Shown piece by piece: positions 32,753-55,757 of a stretch of DNA of 55,798 nt. The position numbers were made by a program, and so were the translations under genes. Below the pieces are notes generated by a model, which was not told the DNA's origin, did no database searches, and worked only from the letters and a program-made list of their open reading frames with translations. Where the stretch lies: assembly GCA_964442455.1 (NCBI GenBank), contig CAYTZB010000007.1:1-55798 (forward strand), in the 5' to 3' direction. Positions within the stretch are counted from its first letter, which is position 1, and the number at the start of each line of letters is the position of its first letter. Origin of the DNA: an uncultured Gammaproteobacteria bacterium (GTDB taxonomy: Bacteria > Patescibacteriota > Microgenomatia > UBA8517 > JACQJR01).

Positions 32753-32826
32753 GCGCCCATAGCTCAACTGGATAGAGCGCGTGGCTTCGGACCATGAGGT
32801 TGGGGGTTCGAGTCCTCCTGGGCGCG
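32753..32826 (+). tRNA. tRNA-Arg(TCG)
   Basis: Hand-folded: GCGCCCA/TGGGCGC acceptor, loop CTTCGGA, GGGGG/CCTCC T stem with TTCGAGT loop. Confidence 0.9.
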
Positions 32827-32942
32827 CAAGATACGAAGTACCTGAGCAGACCAGGGGACGAGAATTTATTCGCCTGTCGCCGAAGGCGACTGACACGGAG
32901 TCACGAGTTTACCGAGGGACGAGTACATCCCTCCTGGGCGCG
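32827..32942 (+). mobile_element. tRNA-3'-end-associated mini element E1 (116 nt, ends in a duplicate of the tRNA-Arg 3' end)
   Basis: Begins ..GATACGAAGTACC, core GGGACGAGAATTTATTCGC, ends ACGAGTACATCC + CTCCTGGGCGCG, repeating 32815-32826. Confidence 0.7.
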
Positions 32943-32947
32943 CACGA

Positions 32948-33019
32948 GGTCCCGTAGCTCAATGGTAGAGCATCCGGCTCTTAACCGGGCGGTTGGAGGT
33001 TCGAGTCCTCCCGGGATCA
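32948..33019 (+). tRNA. tRNA-Lys(CTT)
   Basis: Hand-folded: GGTCCCG/CGGGATC acceptor, TCCGG/CCGGG anticodon stem, loop CTCTTAA, GGAGG/CCTCC T stem. Confidence 0.9.
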
Positions 33020-33120
33020 CTAGATACGAAGTACCTAGGGAGAGCGGGGGACGAGAATTTATTCGCACTCCGCCGATAGGCGGAGACACACAGCGAAGCG
33101 AGTACGTCCTCCCGGGATCA
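33020..33120 (+). mobile_element. tRNA-3'-end-associated mini element E2 (101 nt, ends in a duplicate of the tRNA-Lys 3' end)
   Basis: Begins ..GATACGAAGTACC, core GGGACGAGAATTTATTCGC, ends GCGAGTACGTCC + TCCCGGGATCA; the last 15 nt GTCCTCCCGGGATCA repeat 33005-33019. Confidence 0.7.
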
Positions 33121-33150
33121 CAATTAATGACGCACAAGCCATAAATAATT

Positions 33151-33846
33151 ATGGAAAGCATCGAAAACGGGAACAAAAACTCTGAAGTAAAAACTGTCCG
33201 TCAACATGCGGAGGAGTTTATCCGCTCTCTTCCAAAGGATGGGGTTTTCTTACATCTTACAACTTTTAAGAACTCACAGGTAATTCAACAAGAAGGTGCA
33301 AAAAGCACAAGGGGAAAGATCTGGCAGTTTTCATTCGCCAGTCATTATCCTTTTGTCGATTATTATTCAAGCAAGGGAATAAGGGATACTATCAGAAAAT
33401 TTAGGGGGTCAATAGTAGAAGGACTTAATATGACTGAACATCATCGTGAAGGAGGAGAAAATGTAACTAATTTGTCTCCTGATTCCCTTCCGGTTCTAGT
33501 AATTGGAAGAAAGCAAAGATCTGTGGATTCTACTATGATCGATACCGAAGGAGATTTTAGGAATTTCCCCACAGGTGTTTCAAGATCTATATCTCCAAAA
33601 GATATTCTTTATATATCTACCATTTCACCTGAGGAATATCGTGATTTAGTTGAGAAATCCATGAATGAACCATTACCAAAAAAATATGCGGTATTTAGGT
33701 CTCCAAGGGAAAGGTATATTTTAGAAAAAATTGCAGGAGCTTTGGCCCGAAAGGCTATAATTGGTCTTATGAATCAAAAAAGTGAATACCCAAATACTGT
33801 GAGAACAAAATTAAGTAATTTTTTTGCTAAATTATTCACATCCTGA
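33151..33846 (+). CDS. hypothetical protein (231 aa)
   Basis: ATG-initiated ORF between the tRNA pair and the nuclease / R-M island; no motif recognised. Confidence 0.6.
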   Translation: MESIENGNKNSEVKTVRQHAEEFIRSLPKDGVFLHLTTFKNSQVIQQEGAKSTRGKIWQFSFASHYPFVDYYSSKGIRDTIRKFRGSIVEGLNMTEHHREGGENVTNLSPDSLPVLVIGRKQRSVDSTMIDTEGDFRNFPTGVSRSISPKDILYISTISPEEYRDLVEKSMNEPLPKKYAVFRSPRERYILEKIAGALARKAIIGLMNQKSEYPNTVRTKLSNFFAKLFTS

Positions 33847-33874
33847 TTATCAAATTGGTCTTCGATTATATTTA

Positions 33875-34627
33875 TCATTCTTCTTTTTTGATAAGTCTTC
33901 GATACTGACAAAACTCACAATCGGGGTAGGGGTCGGGAATATTATCTGAATTAAGACAATCTTTCATCGCAAAAATAGTTGGTTCTACCCAAGAAGCATC
34001 TCCTTTATGAGAAATTATCTGGACTTCAAATTCAATTTTGGCATCGAACACTCGATCACCTTTAAGTCCATTTGCATAAACAAAATAGGCTATATCAGAA
34101 ACATCGAATCCCTTTTGTCTAAAAATCCATTGATACCACTCAACCTGCTTTTTGTATCCTTGCTTATATTCATCATCCAAACTAATTTCTTTCGAGGTAC
34201 TGGTAGATTTGTAGTCAACGATATGAAGTTGACCTTTTGGGTTAACCCAAATATCGTCTATGATTCCGCAAATTTCCAAGTTGGTAGGCTTGTGTAATAC
34301 GCAAGCGCCTACAAATCTCTTGTGGTCATCTCGCCATTCGGGCAAATCCGGATGTTGAAAGGGAATTGCATCTATACCGTATTCCTCCATCAAAGCATGT
34401 TTTTTGCCGTCTTTTCGAAGTAAATCAAACTCATTTTTAAGAAGATGGTCAACTGCATCATTAAGAGACCAGCCAGGGAGTCCGGGGCGATCCAGTCCTA
34501 TCCGACGGTCAAGATAAAAGCATCTTGGGCAACCCAGAAACCCCTCCATCCTTGAGCGTGAAATACGAAAAGGCTCGGTAGATTTTGGATTATAAAGATT
34601 GCCTTTTCTTTGTTTGTATTTATTCAT
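33875..34627 (-). CDS. PD-(D/E)XK nuclease, Cas4/RecB-like with Cys cluster
   Basis: N-terminal CPRC, IIDD ... IVDYKS (D / D-x-K), QVEWYQW (Q-x3-Y), C-terminal CEFCQY. Confidence 0.75.
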   Translation of the reverse strand: MNKYKQRKGNLYNPKSTEPFRISRSRMEGFLGCPRCFYLDRRIGLDRPGLPGWSLNDAVDHLLKNEFDLLRKDGKKHALMEEYGIDAIPFQHPDLPEWRDDHKRFVGACVLHKPTNLEICGIIDDIWVNPKGQLHIVDYKSTSTSKEISLDDEYKQGYKKQVEWYQWIFRQKGFDVSDIAYFVYANGLKGDRVFDAKIEFEVQIISHKGDASWVEPTIFAMKDCLNSDNIPDPYPDCEFCQYRRLIKKEE

Positions 34628-34662
34628 TTGCGTGTGTCCAAATTATGTAACCAAAGTGTAGA

Positions 34663-34687
34663 CGCCTGCCCACCCCTGGAGGGGCGA
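34663..34687. repeat. short GC-rich imperfect palindrome between hsdR and the nuclease gene
   Basis: Minus strand reads CGCCCCTCCAGGGGTGGGCAGGCG; shares CCAGGGGTGG with 8871-8880. Confidence 0.3.
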
Positions 34688-34747
34688 TAAACCTGTCCTG
34701 AGCAAGTCGAAGGATCAAAATGTTTCATAATATTAATGTACTACTTT

Positions 34748-37700
34748 TTAAGCCGTAGCATATACTCCTGGACTCCAATCTTGATAAAGAACAGATGCCT
34801 GTTTATAGACAACGTCAACAATCTTCTCACTCTCGCCGGCAGAAAAATTATTCCTCAACAAGAATAGCCTTACGTTAGCGCGGATTTTTGCTTTAATAGC
34901 TTCGTTGTTAGTCCAATCTATAGTTGAACAATCTCGTCTTATCATTTTAACAAGTTCCTTTACTAAATCTTTTAACTTTCCGTTTTTAAGTTCCGTTTTT
35001 CTAGCGTCAGCAATAGCATCATAGAATGCCATCTCTTCCTCACTCAATCCTAAATCTTTCCATGCCGCTTCCTGTTTCCTTATATCTTTTGCCAGCTCAA
35101 TCAAACGTTCAATAACCTTTGTTGAATTAATAATATTATTCTCGTAATCTTCAATTATATCCTCCAAAATTTCCATAAGGGATTTATACCTTACGATGTT
35201 TTTCCTTAGTCTTATTCGAAGCTCATCTTGCAAAAGTTTCTTTAATACCTCAACCGCTAGATTTTTAAACCGCATCTTTTTAACTTCGTCCAAAAATTGA
35301 TCATCAAATATAGAAATGTCCGGTTTACCCTTTCCCTTCATAGCAAAAATATCAATCACGCCTTCCGCAGCGATACTCTTTGAGATAAGCTCTCTAATAG
35401 CTGTTTCGGTGTCAGATTCTAGAATTCCTCCTTCAGTAATAACAGTTCTCTTTATTAAAATTCCTCTAATAGCTTTGAAAAACTCAACATCTCCTCTTAT
35501 TTGATGTGCTTCGTGGTGAGGCATAACAAATGCATGAAGCTTATGCAAATGCTCGCATTCGGTTAAAAATCTCTTCTTTTTTGCCTCATCTATCTTTCCG
35601 GTTTTTACATCAGTAATAACCATATCCACAGCCTGCTGAAGCAATCTTGTTAAGTCAGTATTTGGTAGCTTTTTCCAATTTGAAAATTCCAGACCGGTAA
35701 ACATACTTTTCACCACGTCATATTTCTCCATCATCTTGGCAATCAAATCATCAAGCGGCACCATAGCTTCTTTTTGGATGTCGGAGCTATAAATGCTTAA
35801 GGCTTTTCTCAGATCATCGGCAATTCCAATATAGTCAACAATTAGCCCTGCCAGTTTATCTTTCCAAATGCGATTAACCCTGGCAATTGCCTGAATAAGC
35901 GTGTGTCCTTTTAGGGGTTTATCAATGTACATGGTATGAAGCGGCTGAACATCGAAGCCGGTCAGCCACATATCGCATACTATAACCAGCTTCAGAGGAT
36001 CGTCCGGATTTTTAAATCTTTTCTCAATTTCGCGAGCCTCCATCTCTGTTTGAATCCTGTCTTTAAAACTTTCAGGACTAGAAATCACCACCGCAACTTC
36101 CGGAGCATTAGCTTGTTTTTTAATCATTTGGTACATCTCAACTGCTACCTTCCTGCTTATTGTCACTATCATTCCTTTTCCCTCAATACCTCTATTGTTA
36201 AAATGGAAGATTATATCTTGGGAGATTTGTTCTAGCCTTTCTTTTGCTCCTACCGCCTGTTCCAGCCTTGCAAATTTTTTCTTAAAACTCTCTCGTACAT
36301 CGTATGGGTGTTCGGCAAGTAATTGATCGTATTCCTCATCAATAAAGTAATTAGTTAAATGAAGAGGAACTAGTCTACCTTCATAATAAATAGGTACAGT
36401 TGCGCCATCACTGATAGCTTTATCCATTCTGTATTCGGTGATGTGATCTCCAAATACCAACCTCGTATCTCGGTTATTTAAACTAATCGGTGTTCCAGTA
36501 ATACCCATGAATGAGGCATTGGGGATTGCCGCTCTCATATTGCCGGCAAGCTTGGCATACTCCGAGCGGTGGGCCTCATCTGCAATCACAATGATATTTT
36601 CGCGACGGGATAAGAGTCCGTATTCTTCTCCCTGGAATTTTTGAATAGTAGTAAAAATTAGTTCTGCCCCGGCAGTTTTTAACCTTGTCTTTAAGTCTTT
36701 TACGCCTTCTGTCTGTTTGGCCAGCTTGTCATACCCGGTTCTTAGAAATGTTTTAAAAAGTTGGCTATCTAAATCATTTCTGTCTGTTAAGAAAAGAAAT
36801 GTAGGGCTTTTCAACTCATCCAAATTTTTTGCTTTATTCACATAAAATACCATTGAAATTGATTTGCCGCTTCCTTGAGAGTGCCAAAATACCCCAATCT
36901 TTTTGTTGCCCCGGGGGGAAGTTGCCCGAAGCGTTTGAGAAACGGCCTTGTTGACTCCAAAATATTGGTGATACAAACATATCTTTTTAGTATATGTGCT
37001 GACATCTTTCTCGCTGTCCGCCTCAAAAAGAATAAAATTTTCCAAAATATCCAATAAGCGTAATTTTTGAAAAATACCCTTGACTAAAACCTCAAGCTCC
37101 GTAATACCAAGCTCGTGTTTTTCATCTTCGCTTTCAACGCCTTTCCAGACAGAGAACCACTCCCAAGGAGAGCTGATAGTCCCGTGACGTGCCTCGGTTG
37201 TGTCGCTGACAACCAAAACCTGGTTATATTTGAAAATATCGGGAATATCCTTTTTGTATTCCTGAAGTTGGAAGTAGGCCGATTGAATAGTCGCGCTTTC
37301 CAAAGTAGGGTTTTTAACTTCGAAAATCGCAACTGGTACTCCATTGACAAAAACAATAATATCCGGTCTTCTTACTTTTTCTATTCCCTGGATGGCAAAC
37401 TGATTAACGACCAAAAATTCATTATTTTGTAAATTTTTAAAATCTATTACTTTGGCAAATCGACCTCTTTTTTCGCCATTTTCATCCTCAACTTCAACTC
37501 TTATGCCTTCCGTTAACATCCGGTAAACTTCTTTATTGGCAATTTCCAAATTGGGATGTTCAACGCTTTTTAGTTGATACATGGCATCCTCTATTGCTTT
37601 ATCCGGAAGTTCGGGATTGATTCTGCGCAAAGCCTGCTCCAGCCGTTTTAACAAAATGACCTCGCGGAAGTTCTCACGCTCCGCAAAGGCAACCCCGGGC

Positions 37701-37795
37701 GCCAAATCCGGCCCAAAAGCATATTCATACCCTAACTCCTTGAGCCAATCCAATACCGGCTGTTCAGCTAATGTATCTTCGTTAAGATTTGTCAT
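34748..37795 (-). CDS. hsdR: type I restriction enzyme R subunit
   Basis: 1015 aa; HsdR N-terminal nuclease region, SF2 helicase motifs (QGSGKS Walker A, IADEAHRS DEAH box, QAIARVNR motif VI). Confidence 0.93.
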   Translation of the reverse strand: MTNLNEDTLAEQPVLDWLKELGYEYAFGPDLAPGVAFAERENFREVILLKRLEQALRRINPELPDKAIEDAMYQLKSVEHPNLEIANKEVYRMLTEGIRVEVEDENGEKRGRFAKVIDFKNLQNNEFLVVNQFAIQGIEKVRRPDIIVFVNGVPVAIFEVKNPTLESATIQSAYFQLQEYKKDIPDIFKYNQVLVVSDTTEARHGTISSPWEWFSVWKGVESEDEKHELGITELEVLVKGIFQKLRLLDILENFILFEADSEKDVSTYTKKICLYHQYFGVNKAVSQTLRATSPRGNKKIGVFWHSQGSGKSISMVFYVNKAKNLDELKSPTFLFLTDRNDLDSQLFKTFLRTGYDKLAKQTEGVKDLKTRLKTAGAELIFTTIQKFQGEEYGLLSRRENIIVIADEAHRSEYAKLAGNMRAAIPNASFMGITGTPISLNNRDTRLVFGDHITEYRMDKAISDGATVPIYYEGRLVPLHLTNYFIDEEYDQLLAEHPYDVRESFKKKFARLEQAVGAKERLEQISQDIIFHFNNRGIEGKGMIVTISRKVAVEMYQMIKKQANAPEVAVVISSPESFKDRIQTEMEAREIEKRFKNPDDPLKLVIVCDMWLTGFDVQPLHTMYIDKPLKGHTLIQAIARVNRIWKDKLAGLIVDYIGIADDLRKALSIYSSDIQKEAMVPLDDLIAKMMEKYDVVKSMFTGLEFSNWKKLPNTDLTRLLQQAVDMVITDVKTGKIDEAKKKRFLTECEHLHKLHAFVMPHHEAHQIRGDVEFFKAIRGILIKRTVITEGGILESDTETAIRELISKSIAAEGVIDIFAMKGKGKPDISIFDDQFLDEVKKMRFKNLAVEVLKKLLQDELRIRLRKNIVRYKSLMEILEDIIEDYENNIINSTKVIERLIELAKDIRKQEAAWKDLGLSEEEMAFYDAIADARKTELKNGKLKDLVKELVKMIRRDCSTIDWTNNEAIKAKIRANVRLFLLRNNFSAGESEKIVDVVYKQASVLYQDWSPGVYATA

Positions 37796-38550
37796 AGACT
37801 ACTTTTAGACCATTCTAAAAACTTCTCAATAGTATTTCTTGTGTACTGCATAAATTCCTTACGCTTTTCGTAAGTTATCGGAGGGTAATTGCCATGACGA
37901 TTGTTTTTAGCAAAACTTAACAAGTCCAGATTTTTCGTAATTGATAAACTGGATGCCATTTTTTCCCAAGCATTTTTATCTCGTTTGCTGTCATCTTTTA
38001 TGTTATGGTCATCGAAGTAAGTCCTTCGTATTGTTTCGAGAGCTCTTAGACAATATAGCGCAGTCGTTCGGGGATATTTAATTGATCTACGATAATCAGT
38101 CAAAGCAAGAGATATGGCATTAGATTTTTCCTGAAGCCTCATTACTTGATCCAGCATTTTGGAGAAATCATCATGCTTAGCTTTGTATCCCCACTCGCCT
38201 ATAACTGGAAAGTCGTAATTTAATCCTGTTTGTTTGCATGTAACTTTATCTATAGAAACATCGTAATTGTACGAGTTAACGAAACAAAAGGTATCAACAA
38301 AAGTGCGAATAGTTTCCTCTATATAATTTTTGAGTGTCTCTATATTTGGCTCTGTATCTTGGTCAAATTTCTGATCTGTTTCAAATATAGCTTTTGCTTT
38401 GGAATTTTTTACTTCGAGCGAAAACCTACCATTTATGCCCCAGTCAGGAATTAAGATTGAAACCTCTCCATAACGATTCTCTAAGCTACTCAAGTCAAAC
38501 CTAACCCTTTCTGGATAAACAAGTCCTAAAAACTCATACCTGTATTTCAT
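37792..38550 (-). CDS. uncharacterised protein embedded between hsdS and hsdR (252 aa)
   Basis: Starts 2 nt after the hsdS stop; its TGA overlaps the hsdR ATG (ATGA); no P-loop; helical C-half contains RRTYFDDH (an R-x5-H spacing). Confidence 0.75.
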   Translation of the reverse strand: MKYRYEFLGLVYPERVRFDLSSLENRYGEVSILIPDWGINGRFSLEVKNSKAKAIFETDQKFDQDTEPNIETLKNYIEETIRTFVDTFCFVNSYNYDVSIDKVTCKQTGLNYDFPVIGEWGYKAKHDDFSKMLDQVMRLQEKSNAISLALTDYRRSIKYPRTTALYCLRALETIRRTYFDDHNIKDDSKRDKNAWEKMASSLSITKNLDLLSFAKNNRHGNYPPITYEKRKEFMQYTRNTIEKFLEWSKSSL

Positions 38551-38552
38551 AT

Positions 38553-39749
38553 TTATACTCTTATTTCTCCTCTCATTAACTTTGGCAAGAGTAAATCGCG
38601 AAGGGCGGCCAATTTTTGATTTTCTACCTCTATTAAATTTGTTTGACTAAAAATAGGCCTCACAAAATTTTGGAATTTTTCTATTAAATCGTTTACAGGT
38701 AAAACAAAGTTGTAATCTTCTATTGTTGATTTGCTCAAATGAGCAACATTTGTTCCTCCAGCCGAGCTAGCCATTCGGTAGGAAAATTCTTTTCTTAGCA
38801 TTAAGTAATAAAGAAATTCCACATACAGTTCATCTGTAGCTACCGCACAGACATCGAGTGATATCAATATTTTGTCCCAATGGGAATAAGAAGGGACGCG
38901 AGCAGGATGACCAATTACTTCACGATTGGAAGTTAAGTCTGTCATGGCAATTACGATACCGCCAGGTTTAACTAAATTTGTTGAATTATATCTGCCTGTA
39001 TAAAATTTAATCCCATCAGGATTAAAACCACCACCTCTTTGGAAATTGGCCAAATTTATCATTGGTAACCCTTTAGATTTTTCGTTTATTTCATTTGAAG
39101 AATAAGAAAGGCCTTTATTTATTTTTGCTATGTCTTTAATCTTTTTTGCTTCCCATCCTTTCGGAATTTTGCCCAGTTCGCTATCTACAAATTCTGCCTT
39201 TTCATACCTAGGGAATCTAAAATGTACAAACCATTCTTTAAAAAGCGCTTGGGCCATATCTTCCAAAGTTTTTGCAATTTTATTATTTACCTCAATCTTG
39301 TCATCAAAACCAGAAAGGATAGATATAATACGGTGCTGTGTTGTCTGTGGCGGGAGTAAAACAGATAGATTTTCAAAGATAGGTAATCTCAACGATTTAA
39401 CTGTGGAACCAACTGCATATTTAGAGAGATACTTATTATTGAGGCAAAACCAATAAAAAAGAAATTTATTCAACACCTCATTTTGTAAACTGTATATTGC
39501 ATAAACCCTTTGATGCAGATCGAACTTGCCAGAAAAAAATCGTGGTATAAATTCTTTACCTTCCCCGGGAATAATTACAGCTTCTCTGTCAAAGAGATAT
39601 TTATTGCTTCTCTTTATCTCTAGAGACCTATCGAATAAAGGGTATTTTCCACCGACAACTGCATCTTGTGTATTAGTCGAACCTGTCCCTATTTTCGCAA
39701 TTTCTCCCAATTTCACTTTTTGCCAATTTTTTGGAATTTGATTTTGCAT
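38553..39749 (-). CDS. hsdS: type I restriction enzyme S (specificity) subunit
   Basis: 398 aa, two target-recognition halves separated by a conserved central region (LPPQTTQHRIISILSGFDDKIE) and a C-terminal conserved helix (...LLLPKLMRGEIRV). Confidence 0.9.
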   Translation of the reverse strand: MQNQIPKNWQKVKLGEIAKIGTGSTNTQDAVVGGKYPLFDRSLEIKRSNKYLFDREAVIIPGEGKEFIPRFFSGKFDLHQRVYAIYSLQNEVLNKFLFYWFCLNNKYLSKYAVGSTVKSLRLPIFENLSVLLPPQTTQHRIISILSGFDDKIEVNNKIAKTLEDMAQALFKEWFVHFRFPRYEKAEFVDSELGKIPKGWEAKKIKDIAKINKGLSYSSNEINEKSKGLPMINLANFQRGGGFNPDGIKFYTGRYNSTNLVKPGGIVIAMTDLTSNREVIGHPARVPSYSHWDKILISLDVCAVATDELYVEFLYYLMLRKEFSYRMASSAGGTNVAHLSKSTIEDYNFVLPVNDLIEKFQNFVRPIFSQTNLIEVENQKLAALRDLLLPKLMRGEIRV

Positions 39750-39750
39750 A

Positions 39751-40086
39751 TTATTTTTTCAGTAATCCTATAAGCGGAATCCTATCTAATAAATATTGTC
39801 TTTTCATTTTAAGATGTTCCAACTCTGCTTCCAGAGTTTTACGCTCTCTCTCCACAATTCTATCTAACACTGATTAAGAAATTGGGCCTCTTTGCATAAA
39901 CACTATGTATTCCAAATTATCCATCCAGTCCTTGACTATAAATATGTTTTCTTCTATCTCATTTGTTTTTTGAAAAATATTTCTGACATAAAAATACGAA
40001 AACAAAACTACCCCAATTGACAATACCGCTAGAATTAAACCAGGGGCTTTATTCAACAGCTCACCAATTTGAATCTGATTTTGCAT
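39751..40086 (-). pseudogene. possible hsdS remnant (70-aa ORF 39874-40086 plus an in-frame 40-codon tail 39751-39873)
   Basis: The 5' end and upstream AAAAATAAT..ATGCAAAATCA duplicate the hsdS start (MQNQI...GE(L/I)); after a TAA the same frame reads ...LEHLKMKRQYLLDRIPLIGLLKK, like an HsdS C-terminal helix. Confidence 0.4.
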
Positions 40087-40089
40087 ATA

Positions 40090-40500
40090 TTATTTTTCCT
40101 CCTCTTTTTTAGTAAGGTGTTTGATGAATTCTCTAACTTTCTCATCCTTTAACAATTCCGGATTATCAGCGAATAAATCAAACCAGTAGTCTCCATTTCC
40201 AGAACCATGATAGTTTATAATTCTCGATCTAGAATCTCCCTTTATTCCGAAATATTCAGTCCCTATTGTCCACGCAGTCGATTTTGCAATTAGCGCGAAA
40301 AGAAAGACGATAGTATAGATCACTATAAAAACATCATTTTCAGTAACTTGTGTCGGAAGCCAATTATAAGCAAGGCTAAGTAATCCCAACCATGCAAAGC
40401 CGTATACGATAGGACCTACAAATTTGGTAACAGCACTAACTGATTTATAAATAAGTTCACAGTTAATCTTTAGCTTAACCTTATCCAATGAATTTTGCAT
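40090..40500 (-). CDS. uncharacterised 2-TM membrane protein embedded in the hsd operon (136 aa)
   Basis: ATG 1 nt after the orf345 stop; hydrophobic FVGPIVYGFAWLGLLSLAYNWL and VFIVIYTIVFLFALIAKSTAW; charged soluble C-terminus. Confidence 0.7.
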   Translation of the reverse strand: MQNSLDKVKLKINCELIYKSVSAVTKFVGPIVYGFAWLGLLSLAYNWLPTQVTENDVFIVIYTIVFLFALIAKSTAWTIGTEYFGIKGDSRSRIINYHGSGNGDYWFDLFADNPELLKDEKVREFIKHLTKKEEEK

Positions 40501-40501
40501 T

Positions 40502-41539
40502 TTATTCCCTTCTACTTCCTAGAAATGAACTAATGAAATTACCGACAGGTTCGTTACTATTACCTCCGGGGTCTCCTTTTGATACATAACCAGTCGCACT
40601 TCCTCTAAACATTGCGTCAGCCCCAGAGCGTACTAAAACAGATTTGTCTTCTGGTTCTGGTTTTGAACTCAAAAAATCTTTAAGTGTTTCTGCCACATTT
40701 TTCCTATGTTTATTAATAATTTCTAGGTGAGAGTTTGCACTATAGTTTTTGGAGGCAAAGCCGACAGCATATGATAAAAGGCCAAGAAGTGCTAATTTTA
40801 CTGCACCATACTCAATTGTAAAAATTTCTTTGGGTGGAAAATTTGGCCAAAAATCTAGTTTATCTGAAATGAATAGATAAAGATATACACCGAGATTTGC
40901 AATAATTATAAAAAGTAACCATTTGAAGAAAATAATTCTTCTTGCTTCCCAATCTCTTGCTCTTTGTACATATTCTTTAGCTTGTGCCTCAAAATGTTTA
41001 CCGAATGTTATCGCTGCTATCTCTCCATGCTTGACTTCGACTTCCTGCTCTCTCTTCCCCAGAGCCTCTAACTGTTGTTTCAATTTATCTGATAGGACTT
41101 TATATTCTTTTTCTGCTTGCACAGCCGCTTTCTGTTGTTTTTGTAATTCTTTAGCATCCTGACTTTTTAATGCCGCTTCTTGACGAAGATAAACCAGGTT
41201 ATTTCTTAGATTTCTAAAGACTTCATCATAAAAATTTCTTGTATTTGTTTCAAAATTGTCATGCTGATCTTTATTGAATCCAACTGACAAATCAAACGAA
41301 GCCAATTGTTTTAAATGATTGACAAAGCTATCTATATACTGATCTATTTGGCTAACCTCTGGTTGAGAAAGTGCATCTTGATATGATAATTCTTGTAACT
41401 CCTTAAATAGGTTCTGAAGACGCCCCAAAAAAGGGTAGACTGCATCAAAAGCCAACGAACCAAACTTCTCTTTGTTAAGAGCGAGACTTTTAATATCTAA
41501 ATTTGGTAGAGATTCTTTTGTTATTTCATCAGGGTTCAT
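40502..41539 (-). CDS. uncharacterised coiled-coil + 2-TM protein embedded in the hsd operon (345 aa)
   Basis: ATG overlaps the hsdM TGA (ATGA); about 190-aa helical/coiled-coil N-half, then IIFFKWLLFIIIANLGVYLYLFI and GAVKLALLGLLSYAVGFA, then a soluble tail. Confidence 0.75.
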   Translation of the reverse strand: MNPDEITKESLPNLDIKSLALNKEKFGSLAFDAVYPFLGRLQNLFKELQELSYQDALSQPEVSQIDQYIDSFVNHLKQLASFDLSVGFNKDQHDNFETNTRNFYDEVFRNLRNNLVYLRQEAALKSQDAKELQKQQKAAVQAEKEYKVLSDKLKQQLEALGKREQEVEVKHGEIAAITFGKHFEAQAKEYVQRARDWEARRIIFFKWLLFIIIANLGVYLYLFISDKLDFWPNFPPKEIFTIEYGAVKLALLGLLSYAVGFASKNYSANSHLEIINKHRKNVAETLKDFLSSKPEPEDKSVLVRSGADAMFRGSATGYVSKGDPGGNSNEPVGNFISSFLGSRRE

Positions 41540-43326
41540 ATTTTAATTCTCCTTAGATTTTCCAAAATTTCTTTTTCTAATTTTTCGGATTCTACAAAAT
41601 ATTGTTTTAAATCTTTTTCTAATTTTTCTTTTTTCTCCTTAAAGGGGATGCCATCGTCTTCTTCTTCAGCAACTCCAACATACATACCCGGGTTAAGACG
41701 ATATCCATTTTTTACAATTTCCTCAAGAGTCACTACTTTGCAAAAGCCAGCTACAGCTTTATAATCCTGCGCTCCTGACTCACCCCGGTAAGCCCTTACG
41801 GTTCCGGCTATTTTTTGGATATGCTCGTCGTTGAAGACTACTTGCTTTCTTGAGATTGCCTCAAAAATTTCCCGCGCATCAATAAAAAGTGTTTTTCTGG
41901 TTCTATCATTAAACCGTCCGTTCTTTTTGTTCTTAGTTAAAAACCAAAGGGATACGGGAAGCGAGACATTGAAAAAGAGTTTGGGTGGGCAAGCGATTAT
42001 TACATCAACTAGATCATCTTCTATAATCTTCCTTCTAATTTCTCCTTCTCTGCCGCCAACGGCTAAAGCGCCGTTTGCCATAACAAATCCGGCTATACCG
42101 TTTGGTGCTAAATGGTGTAAAAAGTGTTGAATCCACATAAAGTTGGCATTTCCGGATGGGGGAGTTCCGTATTTGATCCGGGGATCTTTATCGCTTAGGC
42201 GCCCCGGTTCCCATTCGGCATTAAAGGGAGGATTTGCTAGGACAAAATCTGCCCTAAGATCGGGGAATTTATCATCATAATAGGAATTTCCAAGCTCAAT
42301 TTGTCCAAAAATGCCGCGGATTGCCAGATTCATTTTGCAAAGGCGAAGGGTTGTTGGGTTTGACTCCTGTCCGAAAAATGAGATTTTTGATGGGTCTTTT
42401 TTGTGCATCTTTAAAAATTCTCGAGATTGAACAAGCATACCTCCGCTGCCTATGGCGGGGTCAAATATCCGGGCATTTTCAAAAGGTTCAAGGATTTCTA
42501 CAAGTAACCGAACAATTGATCTTGGAGTAAAGAACTCCCCGCCGCGCTTACCTTCTGCGGAAGCAAATTGGCCCAAAAAGTACTCATAAACCCTTCCTAA
42601 GATATCCTTTTCGTAAGTTATATCATCATCAAACTTAAGTTTTGAGAAGATATTAACCAGTTCTCCCAGAGTTTGGGGTTCAAGTTGTGTTCTTGTATAA
42701 ATTTTTGAGAGGACTCCTTTAAGCTGTTTAGGGTTTTCATTTTCAATTGCATCCATTGCCTCATCAAGATAACGGCCGATATCCTGATGGAATGCGTGTT
42801 GCTTGAGGTATTCCCATCTGGCGTTTTCCGGAATATAGAAAACTCCGATACTTTGGTATTGGTCTTTATCATCAATAATTAGCTTGCGGTCTTTTTCATT
42901 GGGAAGATAATATTCTTTGTTTTTGGAATCACTTACCCATTCTTCAATTTGATGCCTCCTTTGGTAAAAAAGGTCAGATACATATTTAAGAAACAAGAGG
43001 CCTAAAACAACGTGTTTGTATTCAGAAACATCTATATTCCCCCGGAGTCTGTCTGCTGCTGCCCAGAGTTCTTTTGCAAAATGGAGGTCTCCATTATAGC
43101 TACGCTTAGGCTCTATAGCTCTTTCTATCGCTTCCTGTTGAGATTCTGTAATTCTGTTTTTAATTTCAAGGGGAAGAGTACTAAATTTTACAAGATATTT
43201 TTTTCCTTCAGTTCTTACTTCAATTTCTCCGGAGTTTATTTTTCCTTGAAGTTGTTTTAATGTTGCTTGGCGGGAAATACCAAGCATTCTTGCCAAATCG
43301 GTAATAGAAATAAAATCTTTATCCAT
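41536..43326 (-). CDS. hsdM: type I restriction enzyme M subunit (N6-adenine methyltransferase) with N-terminal HTH extension
   Basis: HsdM_N-like LWAAADRLRG...VVLGLLFLKYVSD, motif I DPAIGSGGM, motif IV NPPF; the first 85 aa or so carry ISITDLARMLGISRQATLKQL (HTH-like). Confidence 0.93.
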   Translation of the reverse strand: MDKDFISITDLARMLGISRQATLKQLQGKINSGEIEVRTEGKKYLVKFSTLPLEIKNRITESQQEAIERAIEPKRSYNGDLHFAKELWAAADRLRGNIDVSEYKHVVLGLLFLKYVSDLFYQRRHQIEEWVSDSKNKEYYLPNEKDRKLIIDDKDQYQSIGVFYIPENARWEYLKQHAFHQDIGRYLDEAMDAIENENPKQLKGVLSKIYTRTQLEPQTLGELVNIFSKLKFDDDITYEKDILGRVYEYFLGQFASAEGKRGGEFFTPRSIVRLLVEILEPFENARIFDPAIGSGGMLVQSREFLKMHKKDPSKISFFGQESNPTTLRLCKMNLAIRGIFGQIELGNSYYDDKFPDLRADFVLANPPFNAEWEPGRLSDKDPRIKYGTPPSGNANFMWIQHFLHHLAPNGIAGFVMANGALAVGGREGEIRRKIIEDDLVDVIIACPPKLFFNVSLPVSLWFLTKNKKNGRFNDRTRKTLFIDAREIFEAISRKQVVFNDEHIQKIAGTVRAYRGESGAQDYKAVAGFCKVVTLEEIVKNGYRLNPGMYVGVAEEEDDGIPFKEKKEKLEKDLKQYFVESEKLEKEILENLRRIKI

Positions 43327-43335
43327 TTGAACTGT

Positions 43336-43364
43336 ATTATAGCAGAAGGTAACAGAATTGTCAA
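43336..43364 (-). promoter_or_regulatory. consensus sigma70 promoter of the hsd operon (leaderless hsdM)
   Basis: Minus strand TTGACA (43364-43359), 17-nt spacer, TATAAT (43341-43336); only 9 nt (ACAGTTCAA, no SD) lie between the -10 and the ATG at 43326. Confidence 0.7.
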
Positions 43365-50473: not shown

Positions 50474-50547
50474 GCGCCCATAGCTCAACTGGACAGAGCA
50501 GGTGCGTTCTAAGCACACGATTGGGGGTTCGAGTCCCTCTGGGCGCG
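50474..50547 (+). tRNA. tRNA-Arg(TCT)
   Basis: Hand-folded: GCGCCCA/TGGGCGC acceptor, loop GTTCTAA, GGGGG/CCCTC T stem; one G-A mismatch at the top of the anticodon stem. Confidence 0.85.
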
Positions 50548-50596
50548 CACTTTTCCACGTTTTCTTTGCACCCTCCCAAAGCGTAGATTTAGCTTT

Positions 50597-54913: not shown

Positions 54914-55013
54914 GAGCGGGATAATCAGAGCTTGTCCTTCTCCTCGTTTCACTCGGAGCGGGATAAGAACCCTAACTTCGTTAGGAACCTTGTCCCACTC
55001 TGCGCAACGCTTG
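54914..55013 (-). repeat. two pseudo 3' ends of tRNA-Gly downstream of the gene
   Basis: GAGCGGGATA (plus strand) occurs at 54914, 54956 and, as the true 3' end, 55013; the spacer carries AACGAAGT on the tRNA-sense strand. Confidence 0.65.
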
Positions 55014-55084
55014 AGCGGGATAGGGGAGTCGAACCCCTCTTCTCAGCTTGGAAAGCTGATGTTGAGCCGATCAACTAATCCCGC
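55014..55084 (-). tRNA. tRNA-Gly(TCC)
   Basis: Hand-folded: GCGGGAT/ATCCCGC acceptor, GTTG/CAAC D stem, TCAGC/GCTGA anticodon stem, loop TTTCCAA, AGGGG/CCCCT T stem. Confidence 0.88.
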
Positions 55085-55154
55085 AGTTCAAGACTTGCGA
55101 ATCAATTCGTTGATGAACAACAAATTGAACTAAGGGATATAGAATACAAATTCT

Positions 55155-55189
55155 CTATCCCGCCTACGTTACTTCGTAACTTCGGCGGG
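55155..55189. repeat. acceptor-like fragment CTATCCCGC plus nested hairpin CCCGCC-TAC-GTTAC-TTC-GTAAC-TTC-GGCGGG
   Basis: Plus-strand copy of the tRNA-Gly 3'-end sequence, in inverted orientation relative to the gene; contains ACTTCGT (the complement of ACGAAGT). Confidence 0.5.
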
Positions 55190-55232
55190 CAAGTCCGCTT
55201 TAGCTCGAAGTAAACTAATGATATCACAAATA

Positions 55233-55262
55233 TTGATAATCTGCTATATATCGTGGTAAAAT
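55233..55262 (+). promoter_or_regulatory. sigma70-like promoter for the tRNA cluster
   Basis: TTGATA (55233-55238), 18-nt spacer, TAAAAT (55257-55262), 30 nt before tRNA-Leu(TAA). Confidence 0.5.
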
Positions 55263-55291
55263 TCAGTAGTTTACCCTGAGGCTAACGAAGG

Positions 55292-55376
55292 GCCGGGATG
55301 ACGGAATGGTAGACGTACAGGACTTAAAATCCTGAGGCTCAATAGAGCCGTGTGGGTTCGAGTCCCGCTCCCGGCA
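55292..55376 (+). tRNA. tRNA-Leu(TAA)
   Basis: Hand-folded: GCCGGGA/TCCCGGC acceptor, CAGGA/TCCTG stem, loop CTTAAAA, long variable arm, GTGGG/CCCGC T stem. Confidence 0.9.
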
Positions 55377-55382
55377 CAAATA

Positions 55383-55456
55383 CGGGGACTGGCGCAATTG
55401 GCTAGCGCGCCTCGTTTGGGACGAGGAGGCTCGCGGTTCGAGTCCGCGGTCCCCGA
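55383..55456 (+). tRNA. tRNA-Pro(TGG)
   Basis: Hand-folded: CGGGGAC/GTCCCCG acceptor, CCTCG/CGAGG stem, loop TTTGGGA, CGCGG/CCGCG T stem. Confidence 0.9.
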
Positions 55457-55464
55457 CAAAATAA

Positions 55465-55549
55465 GCAGGTGTGGCGGAACTGGTAGACGCGTACGGTTCA
55501 GGACCGTATGGAGTAATCCTTGGAGGTTCGAGTCCTCTCACCTGCACCA
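55465..55549 (+). tRNA. tRNA-Leu(CAG), CCA encoded
   Basis: Hand-folded: GCAGGTG/CACCTGC acceptor, TACGG/CCGTA stem, loop TTCAGGA, long variable arm; discriminator A followed by CCA. Confidence 0.9.
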
Positions 55550-55550
55550 C

Positions 55551-55632
55551 GCGGACGTGGTGAAACTGGTATACACGCAGTCTTGAGGAGGCTGTCCCGT
55601 AAGGGGTGGAGGTTCGAGTCCTCTCGTCCGCA
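55551..55632 (+). tRNA. tRNA-Leu(GAG)
   Basis: Hand-folded: GCGGACG/CGTCCGC acceptor, CAGTC/GGCTG stem, loop TTGAGGA, long variable arm, GGAGG/CCTCT T stem. Confidence 0.88.
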
Positions 55633-55757
55633 CACGAAGTACGCGGCGAGGGACGAGAATTTATTTTGAGCTTGCGAAAAACAAGCTCTGCTTATTCGCA
55701 TTCGAGCGAAGCGAGAATCTCGCAGGCTCGTGAGCCGAGAAAATCCTCTCGTCCGCA
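55633..55757 (+). mobile_element. tRNA-3'-end-associated mini element E3 (125 nt, ends in a duplicate of the tRNA-Leu(GAG) 3' end)
   Basis: Begins CACGAAGTAC, core GGGACGAGAATTTATT, internal GAGCGAAGCGAGAATCTCGC, ends TCCTCTCGTCCGCA, repeating 55619-55632. Confidence 0.7.

Follow-up and report, generated by a model that had tools for sequence, protein, structure and literature searches.

orf345, a predicted two-helix membrane protein and candidate accessory effector encoded between hsdM and hsdS of a Type I restriction-modification operon

PrrC is an anticodon nuclease encoded in the EcoprrI Type I operon, where it serves as a second-line effector, set free once restriction has been disabled (PMC3710099). 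Another accessory gene, orf345, lies in a Type I operon on contig CAYTZB010000007.1 of an uncultured bacterium, within a stretch of 55,798 nucleotides (nt) that was analysed whole and is called the window here; coordinates refer to its forward strand, and the operon genes are on the minus strand. Like prrC, orf345 is found inside an hsd operon and is probably co-expressed with the enzyme. The products differ, in that PrrC is soluble and combines an ABC-ATPase with a HEPN ribonuclease (RNase), whereas orf345 encodes a helical protein with two transmembrane (TM) helices in which family library scans found neither of these PrrC/RloC-type domains. By analogy with PrrC, the product of orf345 may be a membrane accessory effector that is co-expressed with restriction, a tentative reading to which we give a probability of about 40%.

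A two-helix membrane hairpin with flanking cytosolic helices is also the layout of SLATT proteins, but the matches of orf345 to viral SLATT structures are non-significant (E 0.55-0.87), and no SMODS, SLOG, CBASS-type or other nucleotide-signalling genes were found among the neighbours in the window or in related loci. DUF6161 (PF19658) is matched collinearly by distant orf345 relatives, along the helix before the first TM helix (TM1), both TM helices and the conserved helix after the second (TM2). The best match, of a Vibrio protein, scores 23.8 bits, and eight of 61 distant superfamily members match at E<=0.1, but every relative's match falls below the gathering score of 27, and neither the window orf345 nor 57 close relatives match. 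DUF6161 has no known function, and the literature found on it holds a machine-learning (language-model) prediction as a possible defence family, which is a prediction only. The distant relatives also match the 8xMP family, more weakly; nothing relevant was found in the literature on 8xMP. Five of 57 orf345 relatives align over residues 55-155 with the C-terminal half of the NNH7 model (PF22738, NACHT N-terminal helical domain 7), and one of them reaches 27.8 bits against a cut-off of 27, but the window orf345 has no match and no NACHT domain is present; these matches are borderline, and helical composition can inflate such scores. orf345 belongs to a widespread, unnamed family of two-helix membrane proteins with a predicted N-in/C-in topology, which is probably a distant ally of DUF6161. 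The literature found on membrane proteins between hsdM and hsdS does not describe this family, which is new to the databases searched, and the accessory gene class of restriction operons would gain a further variant.

Restriction operons carrying orf345 and its relatives

The window contains a Type I restriction-modification operon in which hsdM, hsdS and hsdR lie on one strand and are identified by strong Pfam and PADLOC matches. Together with orf345 these genes are:

41536..43326, minus strand: hsdM, Type I methyltransferase of 596 amino acids with a helix-turn-helix-like N-terminal extension (Pfam N6_Mtase 4.6e-104, HsdM_N 4.6e-27; PADLOC MTase_I 3.5e-151)
40502..41539, minus strand: orf345, 345 amino acids, written X in the gene orders below (open reading frame (ORF) list, junction sequence, homolog alignment, AlphaFold2 model and hydropathy)
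38553..39749, minus strand: hsdS, specificity subunit (Pfam Methylase_S 3.6e-32; PADLOC Specificity_I 1.9e-71)
34748..37795, minus strand: hsdR, restriction subunit (Pfam HSDR_N, SWI2_SNF2 and T1RH-like_C; PADLOC REase_I 1.5e-262)

A sequence-only reading of this DNA had placed orf345 between hsdM and hsdS of a Type I operon, with its start codon overlapping the hsdM stop. Coordinates, Pfam and PADLOC bear out the placement, and the hsdM stop and the orf345 start do share the sequence ATGA. To judge from this overlap, translation of orf345 is probably coupled to that of hsdM.

Close relatives of orf345 were compared at 36 loci (L001-L036; 9 from genomes and 27 from metagenomes), about 29 of them distinct after removal of duplicates, and their neighbours were classified by BLAST, phmmer and Pfam. 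At about 23 of the 29 distinct loci the orf345 homolog lies within a restriction operon, in most cases directly past the DNA methyltransferase gene. Type I operons have the order hsdM, X, hsdS, a variable gene and hsdR; in Type IIG-like operons, which are S-dependent, a methyltransferase with HSDR_N_2, N6_Mtase and Eco57I domains is followed by X and a Methylase_S protein; and in Type III operons Mod is followed by X, an AAA_15 ATPase (some loci) and Res. The gap from the methyltransferase gene to X is -23 to +35 nt in most of the 36 loci, X overlaps the hsdS start by 4 nt in many loci, and one extra gene stands between hsdM and X in three. The same placement past the methyltransferase gene is seen at L052-L054. 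In a neighbour-joining tree X switches restriction type repeatedly, even at 75-80% identity, and the window orf345 and its homolog in L052 (79% identical, in the closest Type I relative of the window operon) cluster at 75-80% identity with proteins of Type IIG-like operons.

Operons that bear orf345 homologs also hold defence-linked inserts, namely a reverse transcriptase, DUF4145, AAA_15/AAA_21 ATPases, DUF3800 and AntA. The slot between hsdS and hsdR is variable in related operons, being occupied by a reverse transcriptase, DUF4145, an AAA_15/AAA_21 ATPase or membrane proteins, with inserts at:

L005, 12204-13523: insert between hsdS and hsdR
L031, 7549-8220: insert between hsdS and hsdR
L014, 9153-10523: insert between hsdS and hsdR
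L007, 12273-13729: insert between hsdS and hsdR

LexA-type repressors were seen at two loci. One (LexA_DNA_bind and Peptidase_S24) is fused to an N6 methyltransferase (L003, 7544-9403, minus strand) and the other is encoded just upstream of the methyltransferase (L053, 109-786), and this hints at SOS-style control of those restriction systems.

Architecture and extent of the orf345 family

Hydropathy was taken as the Kyte-Doolittle mean over a window of 19 residues with a cut-off of 1.6, and conservation was read from an alignment of close relatives (A1) and a wider alignment (A2), both with the window protein as first row. Three segments of orf345 are:

40865..40936, minus strand: TM1, residues 202-225, IIFFKWLLFIIIANLGVYLYLFIS (hydropathy 2.22 in the window protein, 2.38 as family mean)
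40754..40816, minus strand: TM2, residues 242-262 (conserved columns; family-mean hydropathy 1.63-1.76)
40685..40714, minus strand: NKHRKNVAET, residues 276-285, the most conserved orf345 motif, in the predicted cytosolic helix just past TM2 (alignment columns)

The AlphaFold2 model, built with 57 aligned sequences (predicted local distance difference test (pLDDT) 80), is all-helical, with an N-terminal domain, a helix at 130-228 that forms a stalk running into TM1, a helix at 242-291 comprising TM2 and a juxtamembrane part, a helix at 296-311 and a disordered tail. The order along the protein is thus an N-domain (residues 1-125), which is a conserved helical domain, a stalk helix (about 126-200), TM1, a short outer loop, TM2, the juxtamembrane helix and a partly disordered tail. 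The flanks of the hairpin are net positive and its loop is neutral or negative, which fits an N-in/C-in topology. Two hydrophobic segments followed by a soluble tail had been noticed in the letters, and both hydropathy and the model agree with this layout, which is conserved in the family. The N-terminal half of about 190 residues had also been described as heptad-rich. This stands in part: the single long helix in the model allows the stalk at about 126-200 to be read as coiled-coil-like, but residues 1-125 form a helical domain, and a crude heptad count did not single out the stalk.

Conservation in the family peaks at TM2 (column identity 0.69) and the helix that follows it (0.74 in A1, 0.57 in A2). 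Near-invariant columns of TM2 are Y244, K248, L251, L255, Y257 and F261, which are spaced on one helix face; H278, R279 and T285 of the NKHRKNVAET motif are invariant. The window protein carries every family motif: a length of about 340 residues, FGxLxF near the N-terminus, a W before TM1, the two TM helices and NKHRxN(V/A)(A/L)xT past TM2.

A word-indexed search returned 68 clusters of orf345 homologs, each about 340 residues long and labelled hypothetical, and an exhaustive profile search returned 93 clusters at E<=1e-30, 1684 at E<=1e-10 and 3195 at E<=1e-3. A further search with A2, in which the number of candidates was capped, yielded hardly any more. Relatives at 17-24% identity are still of this length and still have both helices and the motif NKHRxNALxTF. 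With 68 clusters for orf345 and 14 for the adjacent orf136, neither is a chance ORF. The few named sources among the orf345 clusters are Patescibacteria, Margulisiibacteriota, WOR-1, Schekmanbacteria and Thermodesulfobacteriota assemblies, and the genome loci also include some from Saccharibacteria and Gammaproteobacteria assemblies; the family is patchily distributed and looks mobile. No named family had been assigned to orf345 or orf136 from their letters, and scans of Pfam, NCBIfam and PADLOC likewise gave no meaningful match for either. When PDB sequences were searched with the A1 and A2 profiles, only coiled-coil noise came up, and Foldseek against viral models gave one uncharacterised Siphoviridae protein (E=3e-6). 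In scans of orf345, orf136, orf70 and orf252, a helical region at residues 77-192 matched PHROG 2009 (E=1e-5), a PHROG of no known function; beyond this the scans gave only weak, spurious matches. A tblastn search of 50,697 phage records found no phage-encoded orf345 homolog, and in plasmid records the sole match was a Vibrio tubiashii cassette.

This Vibrio tubiashii plasmid protein (WP_272788435.1) is a full-length member of the orf345 superfamily, with scores of 79 bits against the A1 profile and 284 bits against A2. Its gene is a single-gene cassette in an integron array with attC-like repeats of about 130 nt (L051, pFP31, 187849-200046), where the neighbouring cassettes encode Hhe, a HEPN-associated protein, a 5'-nucleotidase, a GIY-YIG nuclease and AbiH. 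Another distant relative adjoins an integrase gene and an ApeA HEPN gene, and another is near a ResIII helicase gene. A role in defence is compatible with these contexts, which comprise three restriction types, integron defence cassettes and an integrase/ApeA-HEPN island.

orf136 and the other genes of the operon

The remaining features of the operon and its edge are:

43336..43364, minus strand: consensus sigma-70-type promoter (TTGACA, 17 nt, TG-TATAAT; 12/12 consensus positions, extended -10 element)
40090..40500, minus strand: orf136, small two-TM protein (ORF list, homolog alignment, hydropathy, structure model)
39874..40086, minus strand: orf70, 70-residue single-TM ORF between orf136 and hsdS (ORF list, hydropathy)
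37792..38550, minus strand: orf252, accessory gene between hsdS and hsdR (no family match)
33875..34627, minus strand: Cas4-like PD-(D/E)XK nuclease gene, directly after hsdR at the edge of a low-G+C island (PDDEXK_1, E=1e-12)

On the minus strand the genes form a tight string in the order hsdM, orf345, orf136, orf70, hsdS, orf252, hsdR and the Cas4-like gene. Only about 10 nt separate the end of the promoter match from the hsdM ATG, so the operon mRNA would be leaderless or nearly so. With this promoter ahead of hsdM and no convincing terminator from there to hsdR, a single transcript is likely. The G+C content is 0.33-0.40 over the restriction island (33.8-43.3 kb; the drop spans 33000-43300) against about 0.44 elsewhere, and the island starts just past tRNA-Arg and tRNA-Lys (32753-33020), which together is the pattern expected of an acquired island. 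There are 11 tRNA genes in the window, some of them clustered at 55013-55633. At 50474-50548 on the plus strand is a tRNA whose CUA anticodon reads amber stop codons; ARAGORN labels it tRNA-Pyl, and Rfam bears it out as a tRNA.

A single base (40501) separates the orf345 TAA from the orf136 ATG, which agrees with the 1-nt spacing read from the sequence, and the two hydrophobic segments seen in orf136 (residues 28-50 and 58-76) coincide with family-mean peaks at 27-45 (1.74) and 58-76 (1.87). Two ORFs had been counted between hsdM and hsdS; both orf345 and orf136 are there, but so is a third small one, orf70. The orf136 family has an invariant soluble motif, FGIKGDS...WFDLFADNP. Its structure model is mediocre (pLDDT 74), and Foldseek against the PDB found nothing for orf136. 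Homologs of orf136 lie between hsdM and hsdS in other Type I operons, mostly with unrelated neighbours, such as a PIG-L protein, a 219-residue protein and a 237-residue protein in L042 and a 225-residue multi-TM protein in L045. None of these neighbours resembles orf345; those of 219 to 225 residues were considered as short versions of it and show no similarity; a common origin of orf136 and orf345 was likewise rejected (profile-profile probability 2%). No orf136 homolog occurs at any of the 36 orf345-family loci L001-L036, nor at L053 or L054, and the window and L052 alone have the two genes side by side. orf136 is a separate small two-TM module of restriction operons that shares the slot here and is not an obligate partner of orf345.

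orf136, orf70 and hsdS all begin ATGCAAAAT (MQN), and a 29-nt copy of the hsdS start region (repeat D1) stands at the orf70 start with 83% identity (39731-39759 versus 40068-40096). One orf136 homolog starts with an HsdS-like N-terminus. The shared starts, the copied hsdS start region and this HsdS-like N-terminus suggest that cassettes are inserted at the 5' end of hsdS. The sole match of orf252 in scans of Pfam, NCBIfam, PHROGs and PADLOC is a weak one to the PADLOC model Cas13-ApeA (E=0.0057), and its sequence includes RRTYFDDH, which is like the HEPN Rx4-6H motif; orf252 may encode a second accessory effector, of RNase type.

Possible functions of orf345

If orf345 is a membrane accessory effector, a gene of its family would have been recruited directly downstream of the methyltransferase gene in restriction-modification operons, and its product would work beside restriction as a membrane-acting defence module. 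Sensing and oligomerisation would fall to the cytosolic N-domain and the stalk helix, and the conserved TM2 and juxtamembrane helices would form the effector, perturbing the membrane once restriction is bypassed or disabled. The scheme would be that of PrrC, but with the RNase replaced by a membrane effector. We infer such a membrane module from where the gene lies, from its movement between operon types, from its relatives in an integron and an island, and from the concentration of constraint in TM2 and the juxtamembrane helix. A more specific version, which we regard as unlikely, is that the family is a restriction guard with a membrane effector in Type I, IIG-like and III systems, and that its stand-alone relatives are a single-gene abortive-infection class. 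orf345 would then be made together with the methyltransferase and stay inactive while the enzyme is intact, until a phage anti-restriction protein disables or titrates the methyltransferase, whereupon oligomerisation through the stalk helix would produce a membrane-permeabilising assembly.

A number of observations weigh against an effector role of this kind. Library and PDB searches gave no proven effector homologous to orf345, and the role is a predicted one. The best PADLOC-DB v2 matches (5027 models) were E 0.018 for orf345 and 0.0021 for orf136, both over short spurious stretches, and Foldseek of orf345 against the PDB returned generic helical proteins only (best E=0.7). The SLATT, Abi and holin-like families had been proposed for comparison and none matches orf345 or orf136 significantly: the Pfam SLATT models match neither at E<=1 and are absent among the best 25 of 93 and the best 25 of 142 matched families in scans with 57 and 61 relatives, respectively; family library scans found no Abi match for either; and the sole holin match, of orf136 to PHROG 263, has E=0.39, with no endolysin gene nearby. 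TM2 is only moderately hydrophobic, its value in the window protein (residues about 244-262) being about 1.5 by hand calculation, just below the cut-off. About six of the 29 close loci have no restriction genes beside the orf345 homolog. The swapping of X between methyltransferase families makes a specific interface with HsdM less likely. Among distant relatives, one is encoded between HSP20/HSP70 genes and clpB in Bacteroidota (L037/L038, 5077-12730), flanked by two small genes without a family, and another is a stand-alone chromosomal gene in Flavobacteriales.

The placement past the methyltransferase gene in three restriction types, with stop and start overlapping or nearly so, would also be expected if orf345 were a non-toxic tether, its N-domain binding the methyltransferase or the whole restriction complex and keeping it on the inner membrane surface, the entry site of foreign DNA, so that restriction becomes more efficient and no killing occurs. 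The large cytosolic helical domain and stalk helix of the model would suit such a scaffold, and membrane association has been reported for EcoKI. We consider a tether doubtful, as the gene moves between unrelated methyltransferase families even among homologs that are 75-80% identical, as conservation peaks in TM2 and the juxtamembrane helix and not in the N-domain, and as the distant relatives include thousands of stand-alone genes that have no restriction genes beside them. The stand-alone relatives in an integron array and an integrase island would fit orf345 being an autonomous membrane defence, for example one that blocks DNA injection in the manner of superinfection exclusion, for which the operon is only an expression platform and insertion hotspot and which has no functional tie to the enzyme. 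The many unrelated inserts in the hsdM-hsdS and hsdS-hsdR slots of related operons and the duplication of the hsdS start sequence at the starts of inserted genes are in keeping with this. The position past the methyltransferase gene is, however, kept in Type III operons, which have no hsdS, and this suggests more than a shared hotspot; nor is there any phage-encoded homolog among the phage records searched, and autonomy is in our view quite unlikely.

The heat-shock neighbourhood and the chromosomal gene of Flavobacteriales would fit a general envelope-stress or housekeeping membrane protein whose link with restriction in the clade of orf345 is incidental. The context of a close homolog in L008, which adjoins a 596-residue ORF that we take, from reading its sequence, to be a putative DNA primase, speaks for the same idea. 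With about 23 of 29 distinct close loci in restriction operons of three types and a distribution that is patchy and mobile-looking, this explanation is improbable. The sequence-only reading had instead joined orf345 and orf136 in a candidate membrane effector pair, and an obligate two-protein membrane effector is what the 1-nt spacing in the window and the same adjacency in L052 would suggest. This did not survive the comparison of loci, since orf136 homologs are missing from L001-L036, L053 and L054 and stand beside unrelated proteins in L042 and L045; the two families are also unequally spread (14 clusters for orf136 against 68 for orf345) and the profile-profile comparison gave a probability of 2%, and an obligate pair is therefore very unlikely.

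The proven second-line effector that is sheltered by restriction, PrrC, is a soluble RNase, and a conserved membrane protein whose gene keeps its place past the methyltransferase gene in three mechanistically different restriction types would add a new layer to restriction-coupled immunity. Should the guard version be true, a large class of abortive-infection systems encoded by single genes has gone unrecognised in the approximately 3000 stand-alone clusters that are allied to DUF6161. orf345 offers a way into a superfamily of over 3000 sequence clusters without annotation, and its family is rich in Patescibacteria and other uncultured lineages, in which defence biology is almost unexplored.

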